Below the pieces are notes generated by a model. That model saw only the letters and a list, made by a program, of their open reading frames with translations. It was not told the origin of the DNA and made no database searches. A stretch of 64,000 bases of DNA from Escherichia phage pinkbiff: sequence record MN850603.1; one strand, written 5' to 3'. The position numbers were made by a program, and so were the translations under genes. Numbering within the stretch: position 1 is the first letter of the stretch; every line of letters begins with the position of its first letter. Of the stretch, positions 2,574 through 8,115 are shown piece by piece.

Positions 2574-2795
2574 TATGTTTTCTCCAAATAATAAATCTCG
2601 TTTCCCCTTAAAAAAGACGGCACGGAGACCGTCAAGGAGAAACCACAATGTACGTCAGAGACATACTGTATAAGTCTTCCTATAAAGTATAACTCTGTAA
2701 AAAAGCCCTGTCTAAAAATACTCTTCGGTAGCGAAAGGAAGAATACTTATAGCAGGGCATTATTATTATTTTAATTGAGAGAGAGTAAAATAACT

Positions 2796-2871
2796 TGGAG
2801 AATCCGAAGGGACTTGAACCCTTATAAACCTGTTTTGCAGACAGGCACATAGCCATTTCTGTCACGGATTC
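2796..2871 (-). tRNA. tRNA-Cys (GCA)
   Basis: Manual cloverleaf: T-loop TTCAAGT, 7-bp acceptor stem, encoded CCA, anticodon loop CTGCAAA. Confidence 0.75.
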
Positions 2872-2875
2872 AAAT

Positions 2876-2968
2876 TGGAGGAAGATACCAGACTTGAACT
2901 GGTACACCGATTTCTCAGCTACTGGCAGTTTAGCAAACTGCTCCCTTACCTTTTAGGGTTAATCTTCC
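2876..2968 (-). tRNA. tRNA-Ser (GCU), type II
   Basis: 93 nt, long variable arm, T-loop TTCAAGT, CCA encoded, anticodon loop TTGCTAA. Confidence 0.75.
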
Positions 2969-2969
2969 A

Positions 2970-3704
2970 TTATTTCTGCAATGCGTTCTTCATTTCTGGT
3001 GTTGCAATAGAATCGATTACACCAGTTTTACAAGCATCATCAAACCAGTCTGGTAAGATACCTGCTAAGAACCCATTGATATTCGTTTTAAGGTACTCTG
3101 CAATAAGGGCAGCTTCTTCTTCAATCATCTGCACAACTTCATCTGCATAAGCTGTAATCTTTGAAATACCTTCATTAATCTTACTAACAGCTTGGTTAGC
3201 TAAATCAGAAATAGTATCAAGACCTTTATCAATAGCATCCTGTAAGTCACTTAACACATCATTAACACCATCTAGTGTACTGTTAATCGTATCCATAGCT
3301 TTTTGACCATACTCTGTAGCAACACCCATAATACCACTAAACGGTGTACAGCCAACTTGCTCTCCTGCTGCACCCATAACATTGGAATAACCTTTTGCTA
3401 CCTGCATACGTGATGAGAACTCATCAATGGACTTTTGACCGTAATCTGTCAGCGTCTTAGTAGTTGATGTAGTGCTTGTCAGACTCGTTGTAAAGCCATT
3501 AAGCAGAACTGTTGTAAGTCCAGCAGCAACAAGCTTATCCTTTACTGTAGGGTCTGATACAGAGCTAATAGAGTTTACAAGTGATGTAGAGGCAGCTACG
3601 GTTCCACCGAGAACTGCTGCACCAGTAATAAGGGGATTAGAAAACCCTCTACCGGTTTTTAAGAGATTGAAAATCTCCTTACCTTGTTCTGTCATCTCTT
3701 TCAT
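2970..3704 (-). CDS. hypothetical protein (244 aa) embedded in tRNA cluster
   Basis: Long minus ORF; start set to ATG at 3704 because the track start (3767) would overlap the next tRNA. Thr/Ser-rich low-complexity stretches; no motif recognised. Confidence 0.55.
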   Translation of the reverse strand: MKEMTEQGKEIFNLLKTGRGFSNPLITGAAVLGGTVAASTSLVNSISSVSDPTVKDKLVAAGLTTVLLNGFTTSLTSTTSTTKTLTDYGQKSIDEFSSRMQVAKGYSNVMGAAGEQVGCTPFSGIMGVATEYGQKAMDTINSTLDGVNDVLSDLQDAIDKGLDTISDLANQAVSKINEGISKITAYADEVVQMIEEEAALIAEYLKTNINGFLAGILPDWFDDACKTGVIDSIATPEMKNALQK

Positions 3705-3720
3705 TAAGCACCTTTGAAAT

Positions 3721-3796
3721 TGGTAGTCCAGTGGGATTTGAACCCTATTCTCATGTTTTTCAGACACGCGCTTTAACCATATAAGCTACTTGGACT
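3721..3796 (-). tRNA. tRNA-Phe (GAA)
   Basis: T-loop TTCAAAT, CCA encoded, anticodon stem-loop CGTGT-CTGAAAA-ACATG; acceptor/T-stem pairing imperfect, ends approximate. Confidence 0.6.
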
Positions 3797-3802
3797 ATAA
3801 AT

Positions 3803-3878
3803 TGGGGTGACCTACGGGATTTGAACCCGTATAGACCATGTTCACAGCATGGGTCATTACCATTTATGATAAGGCCAC
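3803..3878 (-). tRNA. tRNA-His (GUG)
   Basis: T-loop TTCAAAT, 7-bp acceptor with one G-U, CCA encoded, anticodon loop CTGTGAA. Confidence 0.75.
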
Positions 3879-3909
3879 ATTTAAGGCCTCTCGTAAGAAC
3901 CCTTAGAAG

Positions 3910-3985
3910 TGGCAGCGGCATAAGGATTTGAACCTTAATAGGACAGCTTCAGAGACTGCTGCATTGCCAGTTATGCTATACCGCT
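3910..3985 (-). tRNA. tRNA-Gln (CUG)
   Basis: D-stem GCAT/ATGC, T-loop TTCAAAT, CCA encoded, anticodon loop CTCTGAA. Confidence 0.65.
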
Positions 3986-3990
3986 AAATT

Positions 3991-4069
3991 TGGTACTCCA
4001 TATCGGATTCGAACCGATACATAACACAGATTTTAAGTCTGGCCTCTCTGCCAATTGGAGTAATGGAGC
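3991..4069 (-). tRNA. tRNA with anticodon UAA (Leu-type anticodon; short variable arm)
   Basis: T-arm ATCGG-TTCGAAT-CCGAT, 7-bp acceptor, A73, CCA; anticodon loop CTTAAAA. 79 nt with no long variable arm, so isotype needs confirmation. Confidence 0.55.
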
Positions 4070-4071
4070 AT

Positions 4072-4147
4072 TGGCGGGGGATGTTGGAATTGAACCAACT
4101 TCTTCGATTTCAAAGACCGAGGTTTTAACCTTGTAAACTAATCCCCT
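4072..4147 (-). tRNA. tRNA-Gln (UUG)
   Basis: T-arm GTTGG-TTCAATT-CCAAC, D-arm GTTT/AAAC, anticodon loop CTTTGAA; 1:72 unpaired. Confidence 0.7.
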
Positions 4148-4155
4148 TTAAATCT

Positions 4156-4713
4156 TTACTTTCTCAGTGGATGAATAAAGAATGCCAACATAACTCTTTC
4201 CCTTGAGAATGCTCTTTCTTCTGGGACAACACTTTTTAGTTTCCATCCAACATAGATTCTCCAGTAAAACTGTTTACCAAAGACTTTAATTGACGGAATA
4301 AAAGCGAATAATCCCCAAGCATTGTTGTTCCACATTAGGAGATAACCTGTCTGATTATCTTCGGGGTCAGAACTTACGTTGATATTACCTTTCCACTTAG
4401 TAACATCTTTTACATCTCTTCCTAATACATGGTAAGAGAAGTTATAAGCTTTGTTTCTCCAGAGCCATCCGACTCTCTGCATGTAGACACCCAGCTTACC
4501 AATCTTTCTAATCTTAGCCCATCTTTTAACGTGACCCTCATCACCATCAATTGGGTTGTCATATGTCTCCATCCATCTGAACCCGAAAGGTAAGTGTCCT
4601 TTCTTCTCACTGTAGAATGGAACTACAAAAGGTGCTAAGATAACTGCTAAGATTGCTGCAAATGGCTCTAACAAAGCTAAGAAAATCCATGAAGCATACT
4701 TCAAATATCTCAT
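4156..4713 (-). CDS. hypothetical membrane protein (185 aa)
   Basis: ATG at 4713 with AAGAGG SD; hydrophobic N-terminal segment. Confidence 0.6.
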   Translation of the reverse strand: MRYLKYASWIFLALLEPFAAILAVILAPFVVPFYSEKKGHLPFGFRWMETYDNPIDGDEGHVKRWAKIRKIGKLGVYMQRVGWLWRNKAYNFSYHVLGRDVKDVTKWKGNINVSSDPEDNQTGYLLMWNNNAWGLFAFIPSIKVFGKQFYWRIYVGWKLKSVVPEERAFSRERVMLAFFIHPLRK

Positions 4714-4732
4714 CTAAATAGCCTCTTTAAAT

Positions 4733-4808
4733 TGGCGCAGGATAAGGGATTCGAACCCCTATTAACAGCTTCGTAGACTGTTGCTCTATCCATTTGAACT
4801 AATCCTGC
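4733..4808 (-). tRNA. tRNA-Arg (ACG)
   Basis: T-loop TTCGAAT, 7-bp acceptor, CCA encoded, anticodon stem-loop ACAGT-CTACGAA-GCTGT. Confidence 0.75.
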
Positions 4809-4922
4809 TTACCTACGAGAACACCATACAGTTTTTCACAAACTTTGTTTTTACGTCTGTTTAGGTATGACGCTCTAAACTTTTTTGCGATGGAGTTATT
4901 ACTCATGGTGCTCTCCTCAAAT

Positions 4923-5000
4923 TGGTGTTCCAAGACGGATTCGAACCGTCACTAATACAAGGTTTGAGCTTGCATCCTCTGCCAATTGGGATACTGGAAC
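4923..5000 (-). tRNA. tRNA with anticodon CAA (Leu-type anticodon; short variable arm)
   Basis: T-arm GACGG-TTCGAAT-CCGTC, acceptor 7 bp, A73, CCA; anticodon loop CTCAAAC; 78 nt. Confidence 0.55.
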
Positions 5001-5001
5001 A

Positions 5002-5076
5002 TGGTACTCACTAAAGGACTTGAACCTTTTTCTTCATCTTGTAAGGGTGATGTTTTACCATATAAACTAAGCGAGT
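5002..5076 (-). tRNA. tRNA-Val (UAC)
   Basis: T-loop TTCAAGT, acceptor 7 bp incl. G-U, CCA encoded, anticodon loop CTTACAA. Confidence 0.7.
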
Positions 5077-5171
5077 GTGAAAGAGGTCTGAAGTTGTGCC
5101 GCTAACTCAACTCCGTGGAATTTGTTACGGTCTTCAGTTGACACCAGCGGTCTTTCACTTGACCTCTGAAT
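5077..5171 (-). other. unassigned structured spacer (tRNA-like/ncRNA candidate)
   Basis: 95-nt gap between tRNA-Val and tRNA-Thr flanked by complementary ends (agaggtc ... gacctct); no canonical T-loop found. Confidence 0.25.
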
Positions 5172-5247
5172 TGGTGCTCCCACAAGGATTCGAACCCTGA
5201 TAAGTTGCTTACAAGGCAACCGTAATAGCCAATTATACGATAGGAGC
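5172..5247 (-). tRNA. tRNA-Thr (UGU)
   Basis: T-loop TTCGAAT, CCA encoded, perfect anticodon stem GTTGC/GCAAC with loop CTTGTAA. Confidence 0.78.
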
Positions 5248-5254
5248 ATTAATT

Positions 5255-5329
5255 TGGAGCATCCAGAGGGAATCGAACCCTCAACCTCAGTTTGGAAGAC
5301 TGTAATTTTCCCGTTTAAACTATGGATGC
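5255..5329 (-). tRNA. tRNA-Gly (UCC)
   Basis: T-arm GAGGG-TTCGATT-CCCTC, acceptor GCATCCA/TGGATGC, CCA encoded, anticodon loop CTTCCAA. Confidence 0.78.
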
Positions 5330-5335
5330 ACTAAT

Positions 5336-5411
5336 TGGTGGAGAAGCAGGGAATTGAACCCTGTACTTAAGTTTGCAAAACTTATGTTTTAACCATGTAA
5401 ACTACATCCCC
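5336..5411 (-). tRNA. tRNA-Ala (UGC)
   Basis: Acceptor stem with G3:U70 (Ala identity pair), A73, CCA; anticodon stem TAAGT/ACTTA with loop TTTGCAA. Confidence 0.8.
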
Positions 5412-5417
5412 AATGTC

Positions 5418-5493
5418 TGGTACAGGTGGAGGGAATTGAACCCGTCGTCTTACTGATTAAGAGTCAGCCGCATAACCATTTTGCTACACCTGC
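5418..5493 (-). tRNA. tRNA-Lys (CUU)
   Basis: T-loop TTCAATT, CCA encoded, anticodon loop CTCTTAA; T-stem has two mismatches. Confidence 0.65.
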
Positions 5494-5500
5494 ATTAATT

Positions 5501-5578
5501 TGGTGGGAGACAAGGGATTCGAACCCTCAAACATCTCGTTCTAAGCGAGATAGGTTTACCAATTACCATCAATCTCCC
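5501..5578 (-). tRNA. tRNA with anticodon UAG (Leu-type anticodon; short variable arm)
   Basis: T-arm GAGGG-TTCGAAT-CCCTT, acceptor 7 bp, A73, CCA; anticodon stem TCTCG/CGAGA with loop CTTAGAA; non-canonical D region. Confidence 0.55.
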
Positions 5579-5833
5579 ATTAAATCTTTTTAGAGAACTT
5601 CTAAGAACCTAAGCAACAAGGTTCCACAACAAGCTGTAATAACCTTAGAAGCCCTCTAAAAAGACCTAAAAAGGTCTTTGCATAGTCTTGTTTAATCCGG
5701 TGACTAGAACCTTTGGAGAGCTTGATATTATCTCTTCTCCGTGACACCTACTAGGTGTTTTATCAGTGTGTACGACAATACACGAGGGATACCAAAGCAA
5801 CATCCGAATGAAGCTTGGCTTTAAATCTTATTA

Positions 5834-5923
5834 GGCGGTAAGTAAAGGAGTCGAACCCTCACCGTATCTCTACAGTGGCAACTGTTTTCAAGACAGTTTG
5901 GCTACCATTAGCCGCTACCTACC
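5834..5923 (-). tRNA. tRNA-Ser (UGA), type II
   Basis: About 88 nt, long variable arm, T-loop TTCGACT, perfect anticodon stem ACTGT/ACAGT with loop CTTGAAA; 3' end reads GCC-T, so CCA not fully encoded. Confidence 0.7.
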
Positions 5924-5936
5924 CCTAATAAGACTT

Positions 5937-6019
5937 TGGCATGGGACGGAGGAGTTGAACCCCTTTGAAACGGTTTTGGAGGCCGTTGCTCATGCCTTAG
6001 AGTCTTAACATCGTCCCAT
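5937..6019 (-). tRNA. tRNA-Trp (CCA) candidate, atypical D region
   Basis: Perfect 7-bp acceptor ATGGGAC/GTCCCAT, T-loop TTCAACT, CCA encoded, anticodon loop CTCCAAA; 83 nt with an over-long D region. Confidence 0.5.
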
Positions 6020-6160
6020 ACTATAATTCGAAGCTTACCGTATTATCTCAACACTGTAAAGCTCCTTCTCAGGTTATTTACATGTTCTGGAAACATGAGA
6101 TACAGACCACCTCCCTACAGGAAGACCCGCTTAGGTCGTCTAAGTAATCTGCTAACTAAT

Positions 6161-6237
6161 TGGCACACCCTACAGGATTCGAACCTGTAACTCAATGATT
6201 AGAAGTCATTTGCTCTGTCCAGTTGAACTAAGGGTGC
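6161..6237 (-). tRNA. tRNA-Arg (UCU)
   Basis: D-arm GTTC/GAGC, anticodon stem AATGA/TCATT with loop CTTCTAA, T-loop TTCGAAT, CCA encoded. Confidence 0.78.
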
Positions 6238-6573
6238 ATTAATCTTTAAAGACTCTCTTAGAAAGCCCTTAAAGATGCCCACCTTATTAATCATACCGTG
6301 GGCTAGTACGCCAAATTCTTTGATGAGGGATTGGAAGACCTCACTGGTGTTTAGCCTATCAAGCTACTGCCAGAAAAACATTGTCGTTTGCATTTATTTT
6401 AAATTTGCAAAATAGACGCTACGCAACGAAAACTATTCAGAATATGTACAACAAATTTCCCCACATTGTGTTACGTCTAACACTCATGTATTGGTGTTTG
6501 AATTATACATATTATGAAGTATTTTAGTTACTATAAAGTAGTCACATCTCAATGTCAACAACTTTATTGAAAT

Positions 6574-6649
6574 TGGTACTGGTAGGTGGAATCGAACCAC
6601 CGATGTTCCCTTATCAGGGGAGTGTTATAACCTTCTTAACTATACCAGC
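6574..6649 (-). tRNA. tRNA-Ile (GAU)
   Basis: T-arm GGTGG-TTCGATT-CCACC, CCA encoded, anticodon loop CTGATAA. Confidence 0.72.
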
Positions 6650-6650
6650 T

Positions 6651-6727
6651 TGGAGGTTCAGATGGGAATCGAACCCACATTCATAGGGTTTATGAGACCC
6701 TTGCATTACCTTATCTGCGACTGAACC
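6651..6727 (-). tRNA. tRNA-Met (CAU), elongator-like
   Basis: Perfect acceptor GGTTCAG/CTGAACC, anticodon stem AGGGT/ACCCT with loop CTCATAA, T-loop TTCGATT, CCA encoded. Confidence 0.75.
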
Positions 6728-6731
6728 ATAT

Positions 6732-6807
6732 TGGTAGAAGTGGAGGGATTCGAACCCATCGCCTGTCAGATTAAAAGTCTGCCGCATCACCATTCTGCTA
6801 CACTTCC
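6732..6807 (-). tRNA. tRNA-Lys (UUU)
   Basis: Anticodon loop CTTTTAA, T-loop TTCGAAT, CCA encoded; T-stem imperfect. Confidence 0.68.
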
Positions 6808-6810
6808 ATT

Positions 6811-6956
6811 AAATTATCTTTGTAGATAAGCTACCCAGACTTGCTTAAGGTCTGTAGCGATGTGCCTTTTTGGGTTTAAATCTAGAATTTACCCTTTCAC
6901 CCTTTGTGGTCGCATACTCACAGGTAAGCTTAATAACTTATCTACAAAGATAATTA
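6811..6956. repeat. 18-bp perfect inverted repeat flanking about 108 nt inside the tRNA cluster
   Basis: attatctttgtagataag (6813-6830) and its reverse complement cttatctacaaagataat (6938-6955); no tRNA fold found between them. Confidence 0.6.
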
Positions 6957-7004
6957 CCAGACCGTTGTTTATCATCTTAAGTGCTACCATTACACCAACT
7001 CGAC

Positions 7005-7035
7005 CTCTGCCGAGTGAAGGAATCGAACCTTCTCC
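7005..7035 (-). other. isolated tRNA T-arm-like element (possible tRNA remnant)
   Basis: GAAGG-TTCGATT-CCTTC T-arm followed by a 7-nt acceptor-like strand, but no matching 5' half in the expected position. Confidence 0.3.
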
Positions 7036-7239
7036 TTTTCTTTACCGAGAAATAGATTGTTTAAGTTTTGCTGTAAACGGTCTTCTGTAAATTTGTTGAG
7101 CCAGACCAAGTTTTAAATTTTTTTCAAAATTGAATTGGCTTGAAAATATCATACGTACTTGCTGTATTTGGTCTTCTGCCCCTTTAAAGAATACTCGTAA
7201 GAACTCTTTAAGGGAGGGGCTAAATAGCCCTCTCAAAAT

Positions 7240-7317
7240 TGGCGGTTACGAAGGGATTTGAACCCTCATCATCTCCCGTGACAGGGGAGTATTTTAACCA
7301 AATTAAACTACATAACC
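7240..7317 (-). tRNA. tRNA-Asp (GUC)
   Basis: Perfect anticodon stem CTCCC/GGGAG with loop CTGTCAC, T-loop TTCAAAT, CCA encoded. Confidence 0.75.
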
Positions 7318-7322
7318 TTTAT

Positions 7323-7410
7323 TGGTGTGCCGTGTAGGAGTCGAACCTACCGAGTCTCAATGACAAGGGATTTACAGTCCCCACCGCTACCATCTACGGG
7401 ATAACGACAC
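7323..7410 (-). tRNA. tRNA-Tyr (GUA), type II
   Basis: 88 nt, long variable arm, anticodon stem GGGGA/TCCCT with loop CTGTAAA, T-loop TTCGACT, CCA encoded. Confidence 0.72.
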
Positions 7411-7478
7411 ATTTAATTTCTATTCAGGCTAAGGACTTGCACCTTACAAATCGGTGAGCAATCGCTTCTCTCCTAAAT
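7411..7478 (-). other. unassigned 68-nt spacer with variant T-arm-like hairpin
   Basis: AAGG-TGCAAGT-CCTT hairpin but no complete cloverleaf. Confidence 0.2.
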
Positions 7479-7479
7479 T

Positions 7480-7556
7480 TGGCGGTTAGTCAGGGATTCG
7501 AACCCTGTGCCATTCGCTTAACAGGCGACCGCACATACCTTATGTGCTTCCTAACC
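7480..7556 (-). tRNA. tRNA-Asn (GUU)
   Basis: D-arm GCAC/GTGC, T-arm CAGGG-TTCGAAT-CCCTG, CCA encoded, anticodon loop CTGTTAA. Confidence 0.72.
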
Positions 7557-7639
7557 ATGTTTAGTATTACCAGACCGTATCTTTCAATTTTTCCGCTAAA
7601 AATTTAATAAATATTGCTGTAAACGGTCTTCTGTAAATT

Positions 7640-7716
7640 TGGAGGCGGGTGCAGGAGTCGAACCTGCCGATACCATGCTAATGAGACATGTGAGACGCCC
7701 TTTCTCTATACCCGCA
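7640..7716 (-). tRNA. tRNA-Met (CAU), second copy (initiator or Ile2-type possible)
   Basis: T-loop TTCGACT, CCA encoded, anticodon loop CTCATTA, 1:72 unpaired (T:C). Confidence 0.6.
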
Positions 7717-7806
7717 ATTCTTAATGACCAGACCAAATATCTTCTTTGTCCGATTTCGTGTCAGATGAGTAGATTAAGTTTGCTGTAATTGGTCTTCTGT
7801 CAAAAC

Positions 7807-7884
7807 TGGCGTTCCAGAAGGGATTTGAACCCTCAAATATCCACTTTGAAAGAGTGGTGACTTTACCATTTTGTCTACTGGAAC
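7807..7884 (-). tRNA. tRNA-Glu (UUC)
   Basis: Perfect acceptor GTTCCAG/CTGGAAC, anticodon stem CCACT/AGTGG with loop CTTTCAA, T-loop TTCAAAT, CCA encoded. Confidence 0.75.
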
Positions 7885-7891
7885 ATTAATT

Positions 7892-7968
7892 TGGTCTCTG
7901 TTGGAGGACTTGAACCTCCGGCCTTACCGCCCCAAACGGAACGCTCTACCAAGCTGAGCTAAACAGAG
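7892..7968 (-). tRNA. tRNA-Pro (UGG)
   Basis: Canonical D-arm GCTC-AGCTTGGTA-GAGC, T-arm GGAGG-TTCAAGT-CCTCC, CCA encoded, anticodon loop TTTGGGG. Confidence 0.75.
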
Positions 7969-8086
7969 ATAAACTTTTCAAACTCTATGTAACCACTTTA
8001 ACATTATTTTTTAGTGATTGTCAAGAACTTTTTTAAAATATTTTTCAGTATCTTAGAAAAGCTCTCATTTCGTTTCTATGTAGAAC

Positions 8087-8115
8087 ATATTAAAGGGTAT
8101 CAAACACATTGTCAA
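8087..8115 (-). promoter_or_regulatory. near-consensus sigma70-type promoter reading into the tRNA cluster
   Basis: Minus strand reads TTGACA (8115-8110), 17-nt spacer, TAATAT (8092-8087); overlaps an inverted repeat aaagggtat/atacccttt; about 120 nt upstream of tRNA-Pro. Confidence 0.5.

Follow-up and report, generated by a model that had tools for sequence, protein, structure and literature searches.

The transfer RNA (tRNA) clusters of lytic phages such as Felix O1, T4 and T5 form blocks of 20-27 tRNAs with early host-type promoters and short spacers, and the cluster of T4 additionally contains two small stable RNAs without a known function. In bacteria, the Rsr/YrlA systems, e.g., rsr-yrlBA-rtcBA of Salmonella and Rsr/Yrn1/PNPase of Deinococcus, comprise a ring-shaped protein with a vWA domain that is encoded beside small RNAs with paired ends; in YrlA, a T arm, a closed stem-loop replacing the acceptor stem, and a D arm follow each other within the stem formed by the RNA ends (PMC4201824). 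Here, we report on a locus of Escherichia phage pinkbiff (sequence record MN850603.1; the whole stretch of 64,000 nucleotides (nt) that was analysed is referred to as the window), in which a tRNA cluster of the layout just described is preceded by a gene for a Ro60-like protein. As four spacers of this cluster belong to a family of RNAs that accompanies the Ro60-like gene in numerous unrelated phages, the locus resembles a Ro/Y-RNA particle in phage form, and we consider it rather probable that it represents a Felix O1-like tRNA operon fused to a phage system of the Ro/Y-RNA type. Such a system would be a variant in which both the lineage of the protein and the motif of the RNA differ from those of the known Ro/Y-RNA systems, and which is unusually placed, within a tRNA operon.

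The sequence CAGAAGACCNNTTACAGCAA was found four times on the minus strand of the window, where 0.07 occurrences were expected. Each copy is followed 40-110 nt downstream by a complement ending in GGTCTGG, and folding of the corresponding RNA yields a helix that closes the spacer. The four pairs are the only matches in 64 kb to a strict signature consisting of a helix of 7 base pairs (bp) in which the 5' strand is followed by 3 nt and CAGCAA, and the complementary strand by a G; all of them lie on the tRNA strand, 10-14 nt from the flanking tRNAs. The tRNAs of the cluster and the modules are all found on the minus strand, the tRNAs called by ARAGORN exactly at the positions that a preliminary description of this DNA had given. 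That description had regarded several odd spacers as tRNA-like but incomplete, a view that did not hold as written, as four spacers are copies of a distinct conserved RNA module (Y1 to Y4, Table 1). A covariance model of the family, R2 (see below), scored 26.8 bits (E value 0.0033) on Y1 and 26.0 bits on Y2, and the latter was also matched by the Rfam model Dicty_Class_I_RNA with 20.1 bits at 7571-7628. A module-like sequence with a 4-nt linker, AGAGCCA UUUG CAGCAA ... UGGCUCU G, is present at about 4470-4668 on the minus strand within the DUF7338 open reading frame (ORF) 4156-4713; its halves are 190 nt apart and it is conserved in close relatives, but this signature is probably due to chance.

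Table 1. Positions of the features discussed in the text (window numbering)
Feature	Position	Strand	Characteristics and basis
Ro60-like protein gene, 471 amino acids	8134-9549	minus	Pfam DUF2828 + DUF7788; alpha-solenoid ring + vWA domain, DxSxS metal ion-dependent adhesion site (MIDAS) motif
Module Y1, between tRNA-Glu and tRNA-Met (7640-7716)	7729-7795	minus	AGACCAA/UUGGUCU, 3' G, UUACAGCAA, variable interior; motif search, strict scan, fold
Module Y2, between tRNA-Met and tRNA-Asn	7571-7629	minus	AGACCGU/ACGGUCU + G, UUACAGCAA; motif search, strict scan, fold z -2.1
Module Y3	7102-7174	minus	AGACCAA/UUGGUCU + G, AUACAGCAA; motif search, strict scan; R2 18.6 bits
Module Y4, permuted tRNA-like domain enclosed by the same closing helix and motif	6958-7083	minus	Fold, coordinates, covariance model R2
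Whole tRNA cluster	2796-7968	minus	26 ARAGORN tRNAs + Trp-like gene
ORFs interrupting the tRNA cluster	2970-3767; 4156-4713		DUF7217; DUF7338
tRNA-Leu(UAA)	3991-4069	minus	Short variable region, A73, 3-bp D stem, 11-nt D loop; Rfam 47.5 bits
tRNA-Leu(CAA)	4923-5000	minus	Short variable region, A73; Rfam 44 bits
tRNA-Leu(UAG)	5501-5578	minus	Short variable region, A73; Rfam 43.7 bits
tRNA-Trp(CCA)-like gene, 27th tRNA	5937-6019	minus	ARAGORN at 80% score threshold (call span 6024-5937)
CAU tRNA with U1.C72 mismatch, U73, fMet-like acceptor stem (GCGGG)	7640-7716	minus	ARAGORN and sequence reading
Hairpin, 148 nt, directly after Y4	6811-6958	minus	Closed by inverted repeat; fold z -5.7
Conserved structured spacer	5077-5171	minus	Fold z -3.0; 95-97% identical to Sf14
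Conserved structured spacer with degenerate T-arm-like hairpin AAGG UGCAAGU CCUU	7411-7479	minus	Fold z -2.6; 97% identical to Sf14
Sigma-70-like promoter before the Ro-like gene	9616-9587	minus	Consensus match only
Two sigma-70-like promoters between the Ro-like gene and tRNA-Pro	8115-8087; 8024-7995	minus	TTGACA-17-TAATAT; TTGACA-18-TAAAGT; consensus match only
Sigma-70-like promoter inside the cluster	6558-6530	minus	11/12 matches; consensus match only
Terminator-like hairpin + U run, downstream of the last tRNA	2616-2633	minus	Pattern match only

The Ro60-like ORF ends 340 nt before the first module and is located just upstream of the cluster, outside the region covered by the preliminary description. 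An AlphaFold model calculated from a 36-sequence alignment reached a predicted local distance difference test (pLDDT) score of 86.4 and has a Ro60 fold: in a Foldseek search the ten best PDB matches were all Ro60, Rsr or TROVE structures with full-length alignments, and the predicted architecture, an alpha-helical repeat toroid followed by a C-terminal vWA domain with MIDAS, corresponds to that of Ro60/Rsr, proteins that hold Y RNA on the outside of the ring and single-stranded ends of RNAs in its central hole. The protein family is large, with 709 matching records in the phage collection and 2262 clusters in a protein search. The counterpart of Felix O1 (ORF42), located just upstream of the tRNA cluster, is annotated as 'RNA-binding protein', the family being otherwise termed hypothetical or 'RNA-binding protein' in the records, and homologues of Mycobacterium cluster L phages are already annotated as 'Ro-like RNA binding protein'. 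DUF2828 proteins also occur in plants and in mimivirus-like sequences, which are the only ones mentioned in the literature searched on DUF2828, PF11443 and IPR011205. For a P100-like Listeria phage, the homologous protein has been reported in virions, and abundant non-coding RNAs encoded upstream have been proposed to be Y RNAs; in phage CKA15 the protein was identified by mass spectrometry of purified virions with 57% coverage (PMC12282133). The latter finding hints that the Ro-like protein may be packaged. In the literature searched, the coverage of which was limited, no paper ties Felix O1 to Ro/Y RNA or reports the UUACAGCAA motif in phages.

The relation between RNA and gene was analysed in a sample of 80 viral contigs encoding homologues and in cultured phages, and 82 loci were scanned for the strict signature. 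The gene strand yielded 113 occurrences, compared to 7 on the opposite strand and 4 after shuffling; 56 of the 82 loci were positive, and 70 matches were located no more than 500 nt from the gene. Because pairing itself had been a selection criterion, additional tests free of this selection were used. CAGCAA was accompanied by helix and G in 97 of 417 cases (23%) on the gene strand, in 6 of 335 (1.8%) on the opposite strand and in 1-5% for control hexamers. Positions that had not been selected are conserved as well (A 76/94, G 88/94, U 87/94 and C 88/94; consensus A-G-R-N-U-N-N-W-U-W-CAGCAA ... Y-C-U-G), and a hexamer search without prior assumptions, in which only the helix ends were fixed, returned CAGCAA 86 times, CCGCAA nine times and CAGCAT seven times on the gene strand and nothing on the opposite strand. 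All seven helix pairs covary, with up to five pair types, the percentage of paired cells being circular as pairing had been selected for.

Among 75 divergent loci of metagenomic phages with 39-48% protein identity, 45 carry a module no more than 1.5 kb from the gene. As 23 of these 45 have no tRNA in the locus, the RNA tracks the gene and not the tRNAs. All 191 tRNAs near the homologues are on the gene strand, so that the gene is often part of tRNA operons. The same arrangement of module and gene is found in cultured phages of hosts from three bacterial phyla: three modules are located just upstream of the gene in Listeria phages P100 and cka18, three just downstream in Mycobacterium phage Snenia, the middle one being tRNA-like, and two between the tRNA cluster and the gene in Campylobacter phage CP8, while Klebsiella phage FBKp34 has at least two and a 148-kb metagenomic phage several. 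Tandem copies reach six per locus. The RNA family is widespread in phages and absent from Rfam 15.

Several candidates were dismissed. A first covariance model (R1), built on 39-nt mini alignments of the helix halves, did not span the long loops and gave matches at noise level, and the explicit signature scan with its controls was used instead. An extension of the outer helix past the 3' G (columns 1-3 with 37-39) was paired in 38.6% of cells, which is the level of chance. MAFFT alignments of the full-length short modules did not right-align the 3' strands. An isolated motif at one locus (L056) lies within coding sequence, has no partner and is probably a chance occurrence. We also considered that three abundant transcripts of CKA15 might be the three modules of P100 and cka18; the sole region with published coordinates is more likely a ROOL RNA between two tRNAs. 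In P100 (L087, DQ004855), a match to ROOL RNA (RF03087; 86 bits at a gathering score of 99.1, E value 5e-16) is present at 2426-2977 on the plus strand, between tRNA-Pro and tRNA-Met, with the Ro-like gene following about 1 kb downstream. This match is probably equivalent to a 'non-coding' region of 492 nt reported as highly transcribed in the related phage CKA15.

Module Y4 differs from the other three by its interior. Within the closing helix, a V hairpin (7033-7056), a canonical T arm (7016-7032, GAAGG UUCGAUU CCUUC), a closed acceptor-like hairpin (6998-7015) and a D arm (6980-6996, GGUGU AAUGGUA GCACU) are arranged one after the other, along with an anticodon-stem-like CUUA/UAAG. The T arm had earlier been taken as isolated (7005-7035), but it leads into the acceptor-like hairpin and the D arm. 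Compared to Shigella phage Sf14, a Mooglevirus, the acceptor-like stem has undergone a compensatory change from ACUCG/CGAGU to ACACG/CGUGU. For this tRNA-like subclass, the covariance model R2 was built from 11 modules, none of which came from Ounavirinae; it matched 6958-7083 of the window over its full length with 65.2 bits (E value 4e-11), and the three short modules with 18.6-26.8 bits via the shared ends. Across the loci, 25 matches at E values of up to 0.001 were obtained; every one of them lies on the gene strand, and about half had not been known before. RNAalifold recovered the closing helix, the T arm and the acceptor-like stem from 13 long modules. In the alignment of R2 matches, double changes occur in 20 of 23 pairs, across the closing helix, the T stem, the 7-bp acceptor-like stem and the D stem, and 97.7% of the cells pair, compared to 61% in shuffles and about 42% with slid partners, values that are to be read with the fact that a model-fitted alignment favours pairing.

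Y4 thus displays the YrlA-type order inside an end-paired stem, with covariation throughout the family, 1.05 kb downstream of a gene whose product has a Ro60 fold and is no Ro60 orthologue by sequence. Rfam 15 at gathering thresholds identified only tRNA, transfer-messenger RNA and group I intron matches in the window and in 11 divergent loci. Below threshold, two families matched, and on modules only: YrlA on the long and Dictyostelium Class I RNA on the short ones. The Y-RNA models recommended in the preliminary description proved productive. YrlA (RF02553) reached 28.7-42.1 bits on the long modules of relatives (gathering score 69); four matches that coincide exactly with such modules scored 39.6, 38.9, 42.1 and 39.3 bits, with E values of 2.5e-7 to 5e-5. 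The phage loci share with the Rsr/YrlA systems a ring and vWA protein beside end-paired small RNAs, one RNA with a tRNA-like domain (V, T arm, closed acceptor-like stem, D arm), several copies per locus, and a context of tRNA and RNA repair (RNA ligase and PTH2 near one homologue). They differ in that the protein belongs to DUF2828/DUF7788 and not, by sequence, to TROVE, that the presumed protein-binding module is the 7-bp helix with CAGCAA, that most copies lack the tRNA-like domain, and that the RNAs of pinkbiff are located as spacers in a tRNA operon.

In the model that we infer for expression, binding and function of the particle, host RNA polymerase would transcribe the Ro60-like gene as well as a polycistronic tRNA precursor, the latter from strong sigma-70-type promoters. 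Four spacers of the precursor would fold into stem-closed RNAs of 59-126 nt, which may be released by RNase P and 3' processing of the neighbouring tRNAs. The 7-bp terminal helix (AGRNNNN/NNNNYCU), the unpaired 3' G and the single-stranded UUACAGCAA would then form a putative binding site for the ring-shaped Ro-like protein. By analogy to YrlA, the tRNA-like domain of Y4 might recruit tRNA-binding enzymes or mimic tRNA, and by analogy to Rsr and its Y RNAs the particle may act on structured RNAs during infection. Most likely, it would take part in the quality control, processing or repair of the tRNAs of phage and host, or it would tether an exoribonuclease.

A number of observations weigh against a Ro/Y-RNA-type system. 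The pairing of protein and RNA is deduced from gene linkage, and the proposed function of the particle from analogy. By sequence, TROVE/Ro60 (PF05731) is not recognisable in the protein, for which Pfam gives only DUF2828 and DUF7788, and neither phmmer nor the 36-sequence profile found Ro60 among the PDB sequences. [quoted passage not shown] In 26 of the 75 divergent loci, neither module nor tRNA was detected in the DNA examined; the strict scan probably misses variants. Finally, the modules of the window are located 340-1050 nt from the gene and behind separate promoters, so that they may or may not be co-regulated with it.

Alternatively, the modules might be real RNAs with a different partner, either a host factor (PNPase, RNase E, Hfq/ProQ or tRNA enzymes) or some other protein of the phage, or they might be cis-regulatory elements of a neighbouring mRNA. 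Linkage does not prove binding, many modules are positioned immediately up- or downstream of the gene in the manner of an untranslated region, and the Dictyostelium Class I RNA, which shares the motif, has been reported to bind the RRM protein Rnp1A (PMC7919456). Nevertheless, we regard this possibility as unlikely: up to six tandem copies per locus are not what would be expected of it, the copies of the window lie among tRNAs and behind promoters of their own, and the Ro60 fold of the linked protein matches the only family of proteins for which stem-closed, tRNA-like RNAs from an adjacent gene are known as partners (PMC4201824).

It is even less probable, and in our view quite improbable, that the polycistronic transcript merely uses the spacers as hairpins for processing or insulation, or that they derive from tRNA genes in decay, with neither a partner protein nor an independent life. 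In favour of this reading, the window's modules are located 10-14 nt from the flanking tRNAs, one of them contains tRNA-like arms, adjacent tRNA pairs weakly match the permuted model R2 (28.5 bits at 5361-5488), and phage tRNA clusters are known to include pseudo-tRNAs, as seen in tRNA-OTHER and tRNA-Pseudo annotations. Against it, the invariant CAGCAA, which is not a tRNA feature, and the AGR/YCU-G helix ends are conserved at 40% protein identity, 23 loci have a module beside the Ro-like gene with no tRNA nearby, the acceptor-like stem is closed by a loop and covaries, unlike a product of decay, and the interiors diverge freely while helix and motif stay. Repeats acting at the DNA level (a miniature mobile element, targets of homing endonucleases or recombination sites) would explain the variable gene content of the cluster among relatives, where HNH endonuclease genes occur at several sites, and would fit a multicopy repeat, but are very improbable in view of the extreme strand bias (113 versus 7), the compensatory changes that preserve pairing and not sequence, the absence of terminal inverted repeats and target duplications, and the occurrence of the same signature with unrelated helix sequences in phages of hosts from different phyla.

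If the pairing of protein and RNA in a Ro/Y-RNA-type system is real, a 'hypothetical' protein family of hundreds of cultured phages, including therapy and biocontrol strains, e.g., Felix O1 and Listeria P100, would be provided with a partner RNA and with a role in RNA metabolism that can be put to the test. Ro/Y-RNA biology would be extended to a second protein lineage that is unrelated in sequence and uses another RNA recognition motif, and part of the 'junk' between phage tRNA genes would be explained. The signature is simple enough for automatic annotation.

The short modules were further compared to the Class I RNAs (RF01414), which are reported to be unique to Dictyostelia and to start with a G that never varies and pairs with the C of a CUGU at the 3' end (PMC7919456). 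Both are about 60 nt long, have a short stem joining the ends with a 5' G paired to the C of CUG(U), and carry (CC)UUACAGCAA directly after the 5' strand, the remainder being variable and A/U-rich; the most fixed positions are C and C-A-A, and the second position is variable. At the positions of the Class I stem, the modules have G in 88/94, C in 88/94, U in 77/94 and G in 94/94 cases, the last being required by the scan, followed by U or A. Of the 11-nt Class I motif CCUUACAGCAA, 9 nt (UUACAGCAA) are present, located one nt nearer to the stem, and the phage helix has one extra A-U pair. All nine matches to RF01414 in about 170 kb of phage DNA searched are on modules; with 20.1-28.9 bits, none reached the gathering score of 41.5. 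In contrast to the Class I genes, which have a DUSE promoter about 60 nt upstream, no such promoter is present, the modules of the window following bacterial-type promoters and tRNAs, and these are viral elements in bacterial hosts. It is possible, but only tentatively proposed, that the phage stem-UUACAGCAA RNAs and the dictyostelid Class I RNAs are one ancient family of Y-RNA-equivalent partners of DUF2828-type Ro-like proteins, taken here to occur in phages, giant viruses and eukaryotes, and that phage tRNA operons routinely carry such particles. If so, Class I RNAs would not be restricted to Dictyostelia, and their function would be that of a Ro-like ribonucleoprotein particle. The common motif provides a concrete hypothesis for a class of abundant eukaryotic RNAs that has awaited a functional assignment since 2004.

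With regard to the cluster as a whole, the window belongs to Felixounavirus and is 95-97% identical to Felix O1. For the region 2700-8100, the identity to Felix O1 and to over 200 genomes of Felixounavirus amounts to 94-97% along almost the entire region. Neither the cluster nor its Leu tRNAs are new, since annotations of both exist for Felix O1, Sf14 and many relatives; the Felix O1 record lists the same cluster with 22 tRNAs and interspersed HNH endonuclease genes. In contrast, the modules are unannotated in all records examined, and the Trp-like gene in most of them. ARAGORN identified 26 tRNAs at 2796-7968, 24 of which reach the gathering score of the Rfam tRNA model, and together with a 27th, the Trp-like gene found at a relaxed threshold, this number agrees with the approximately 27 genes proposed earlier. 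Likewise, all 20 amino acids are covered, as had been claimed, because the Trp-like gene is included. Of the 27 tRNAs, the three for Leu with their short arm, the Trp-like gene and one of the CAU tRNAs stand out, whereas the others are ordinary decoders. That large tRNA sets of lytic phages make up for a loss of host tRNAs or counter anticodon nucleases, as brought forward in the preliminary description, may apply here too and is contradicted by none of the present results.

The Trp-like gene has A1-U72, G73 and an encoded CCA, and is unusual in a C31.A39 mismatch and a D region that is 4-7 nt too long; Rfam returned only a tRNA-Sec match of 23 bits. It is 92% identical to its counterpart in Sf14, both the D stem (CUC/GAG to CAC/GUG) and the T stem having changed in a compensatory manner, and a homologue is present in a relative at 48% identity (L007). 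Judged from sequence comparison, these changes and the distant homologue argue for a functional gene. Two CAU tRNAs are present, one of them unpaired at 1:72 as described before; the mismatch is read directly from the sequence of 7640-7716, which was missed by the Rfam tRNA model.

The three Leu-anticodon tRNAs are 78-79 nt long including CCA, and in the ARAGORN cloverleaves none has the canonical type II long variable arm (a stem and more than 10 nt), the variable region comprising 6-8 unpaired nt instead. They have A73, U8, A14 and a Leu-type D loop (AAUUGG) with G18 and G19. The long arm is retained by the Ser (90 and 93 nt) and Tyr (88 nt) tRNAs. The preliminary description was accurate in both respects, and its proposed test by tRNAscan-SE did not turn the genes into type II tRNA-Leu, as the Sf14 annotation lists the same short genes of 77-79 nt. 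Leu(CAA) is 100% and Leu(UAA) 99% identical in Sf14. The Leu(UAG) gene at 5501-5578 is the only tRNA that has strongly diverged between Felixounavirus and Mooglevirus and gave no full-length blastn match to Sf14; its homologues in T5-like phages are about 78% identical without gaps. Related short Leu tRNAs also occur in Klebsiella phage FBKp34 and Campylobacter phage CP8. According to work by Asahara, Tocchini-Valentini and Larkin, the long arm is reportedly dispensable for the leucyl-tRNA synthetase (LeuRS) of E. coli.

Leu anticodons without a long variable arm are likewise found in the type I tRNA-Leu of Streptomyces coelicolor and animal mitochondria (PMC6614811). The phage tRNAs differ from these by a variable region of 6-8 and not 5 nt, by the short arm being common to all Leu isoacceptors of the phage, and by the charging enzyme, which would be an enterobacterial LeuRS. 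As E. coli LeuRS, according to the study on the Streptomyces tRNA, accepts only the type II form of tRNA-Leu for charging (PMC6614811), and as the three have the lowest Rfam scores among the tRNAs of standard length (43.7-47.5 bits), they might not be leucine acceptors in the host but decoys, substrates of another synthetase, or non-functional. We consider this doubtful, since A73, U8, A14 and the Leu-type D loop with G18 and G19 are retained, the UAA and CAA genes are conserved to 99-100% in Sf14, homologues are maintained in T5-like, Campylobacter and Klebsiella phages, and the three are the sole Leu decoders of a set that otherwise covers all amino acids. The short-arm Leu tRNAs are relevant to substrate recognition by enterobacterial LeuRS.

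Other spacers of the cluster are structured as well. The 148-nt hairpin following Y4 is closed by an inverted repeat that had been described as perfect over 18 bp; the repeat is real, but its arms (6812-6833/6934-6955) are 22 nt long and 95% identical. Its pairing is kept through compensatory changes in Sf14. Inside, an inner hairpin at 6831-6857, CUACAGACC-UUAAGCAA-GUCUGGGUAG, resembles a shrunken copy of the module. The three minus-strand spacers 5077-5171, 7411-7479 and 3879-3909 show 95-97% identity to Sf14, matching the conservation of the tRNAs, whereas a protein gene within the cluster is only 76% identical; they fold better than shuffles and match no known family. Accordingly, of the tRNA-like character proposed for 5077-5171 only the folding is confirmed, its likeness to tRNA being unsupported, and 7411-7478 is indeed structured, including the degenerate T-arm-like hairpin, although the label of incomplete tRNAs is not upheld for the odd spacers overall.

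Inverted repeats of 13 nt at 5823-5835 and 5924-5936 flank tRNA-Ser(UGA), so that leader and trailer could pair and lengthen the acceptor stem of the precursor. In a 127-kb metagenomic phage (L086; 510-899 and 2356-3438), the Ro-like gene is located near genes for a peptidyl-tRNA hydrolase (PTH2), an RNA ligase, an ADP-ribosylglycohydrolase and a NADAR protein, which is a setting of RNA repair and tRNA. Elsewhere in the window, genes for a nicotinamide/nicotinate phosphoribosyltransferase and a phosphoribosyl pyrophosphate (PRPP)-synthetase-like protein, i.e., nicotinamide adenine dinucleotide (NAD) salvage, are located at 33404-35185 and 35700-36596 on the minus strand, and in Klebsiella phage FBKp34 as well as in a 148-kb metagenomic phage this pair of genes immediately precedes the Ro-like gene.

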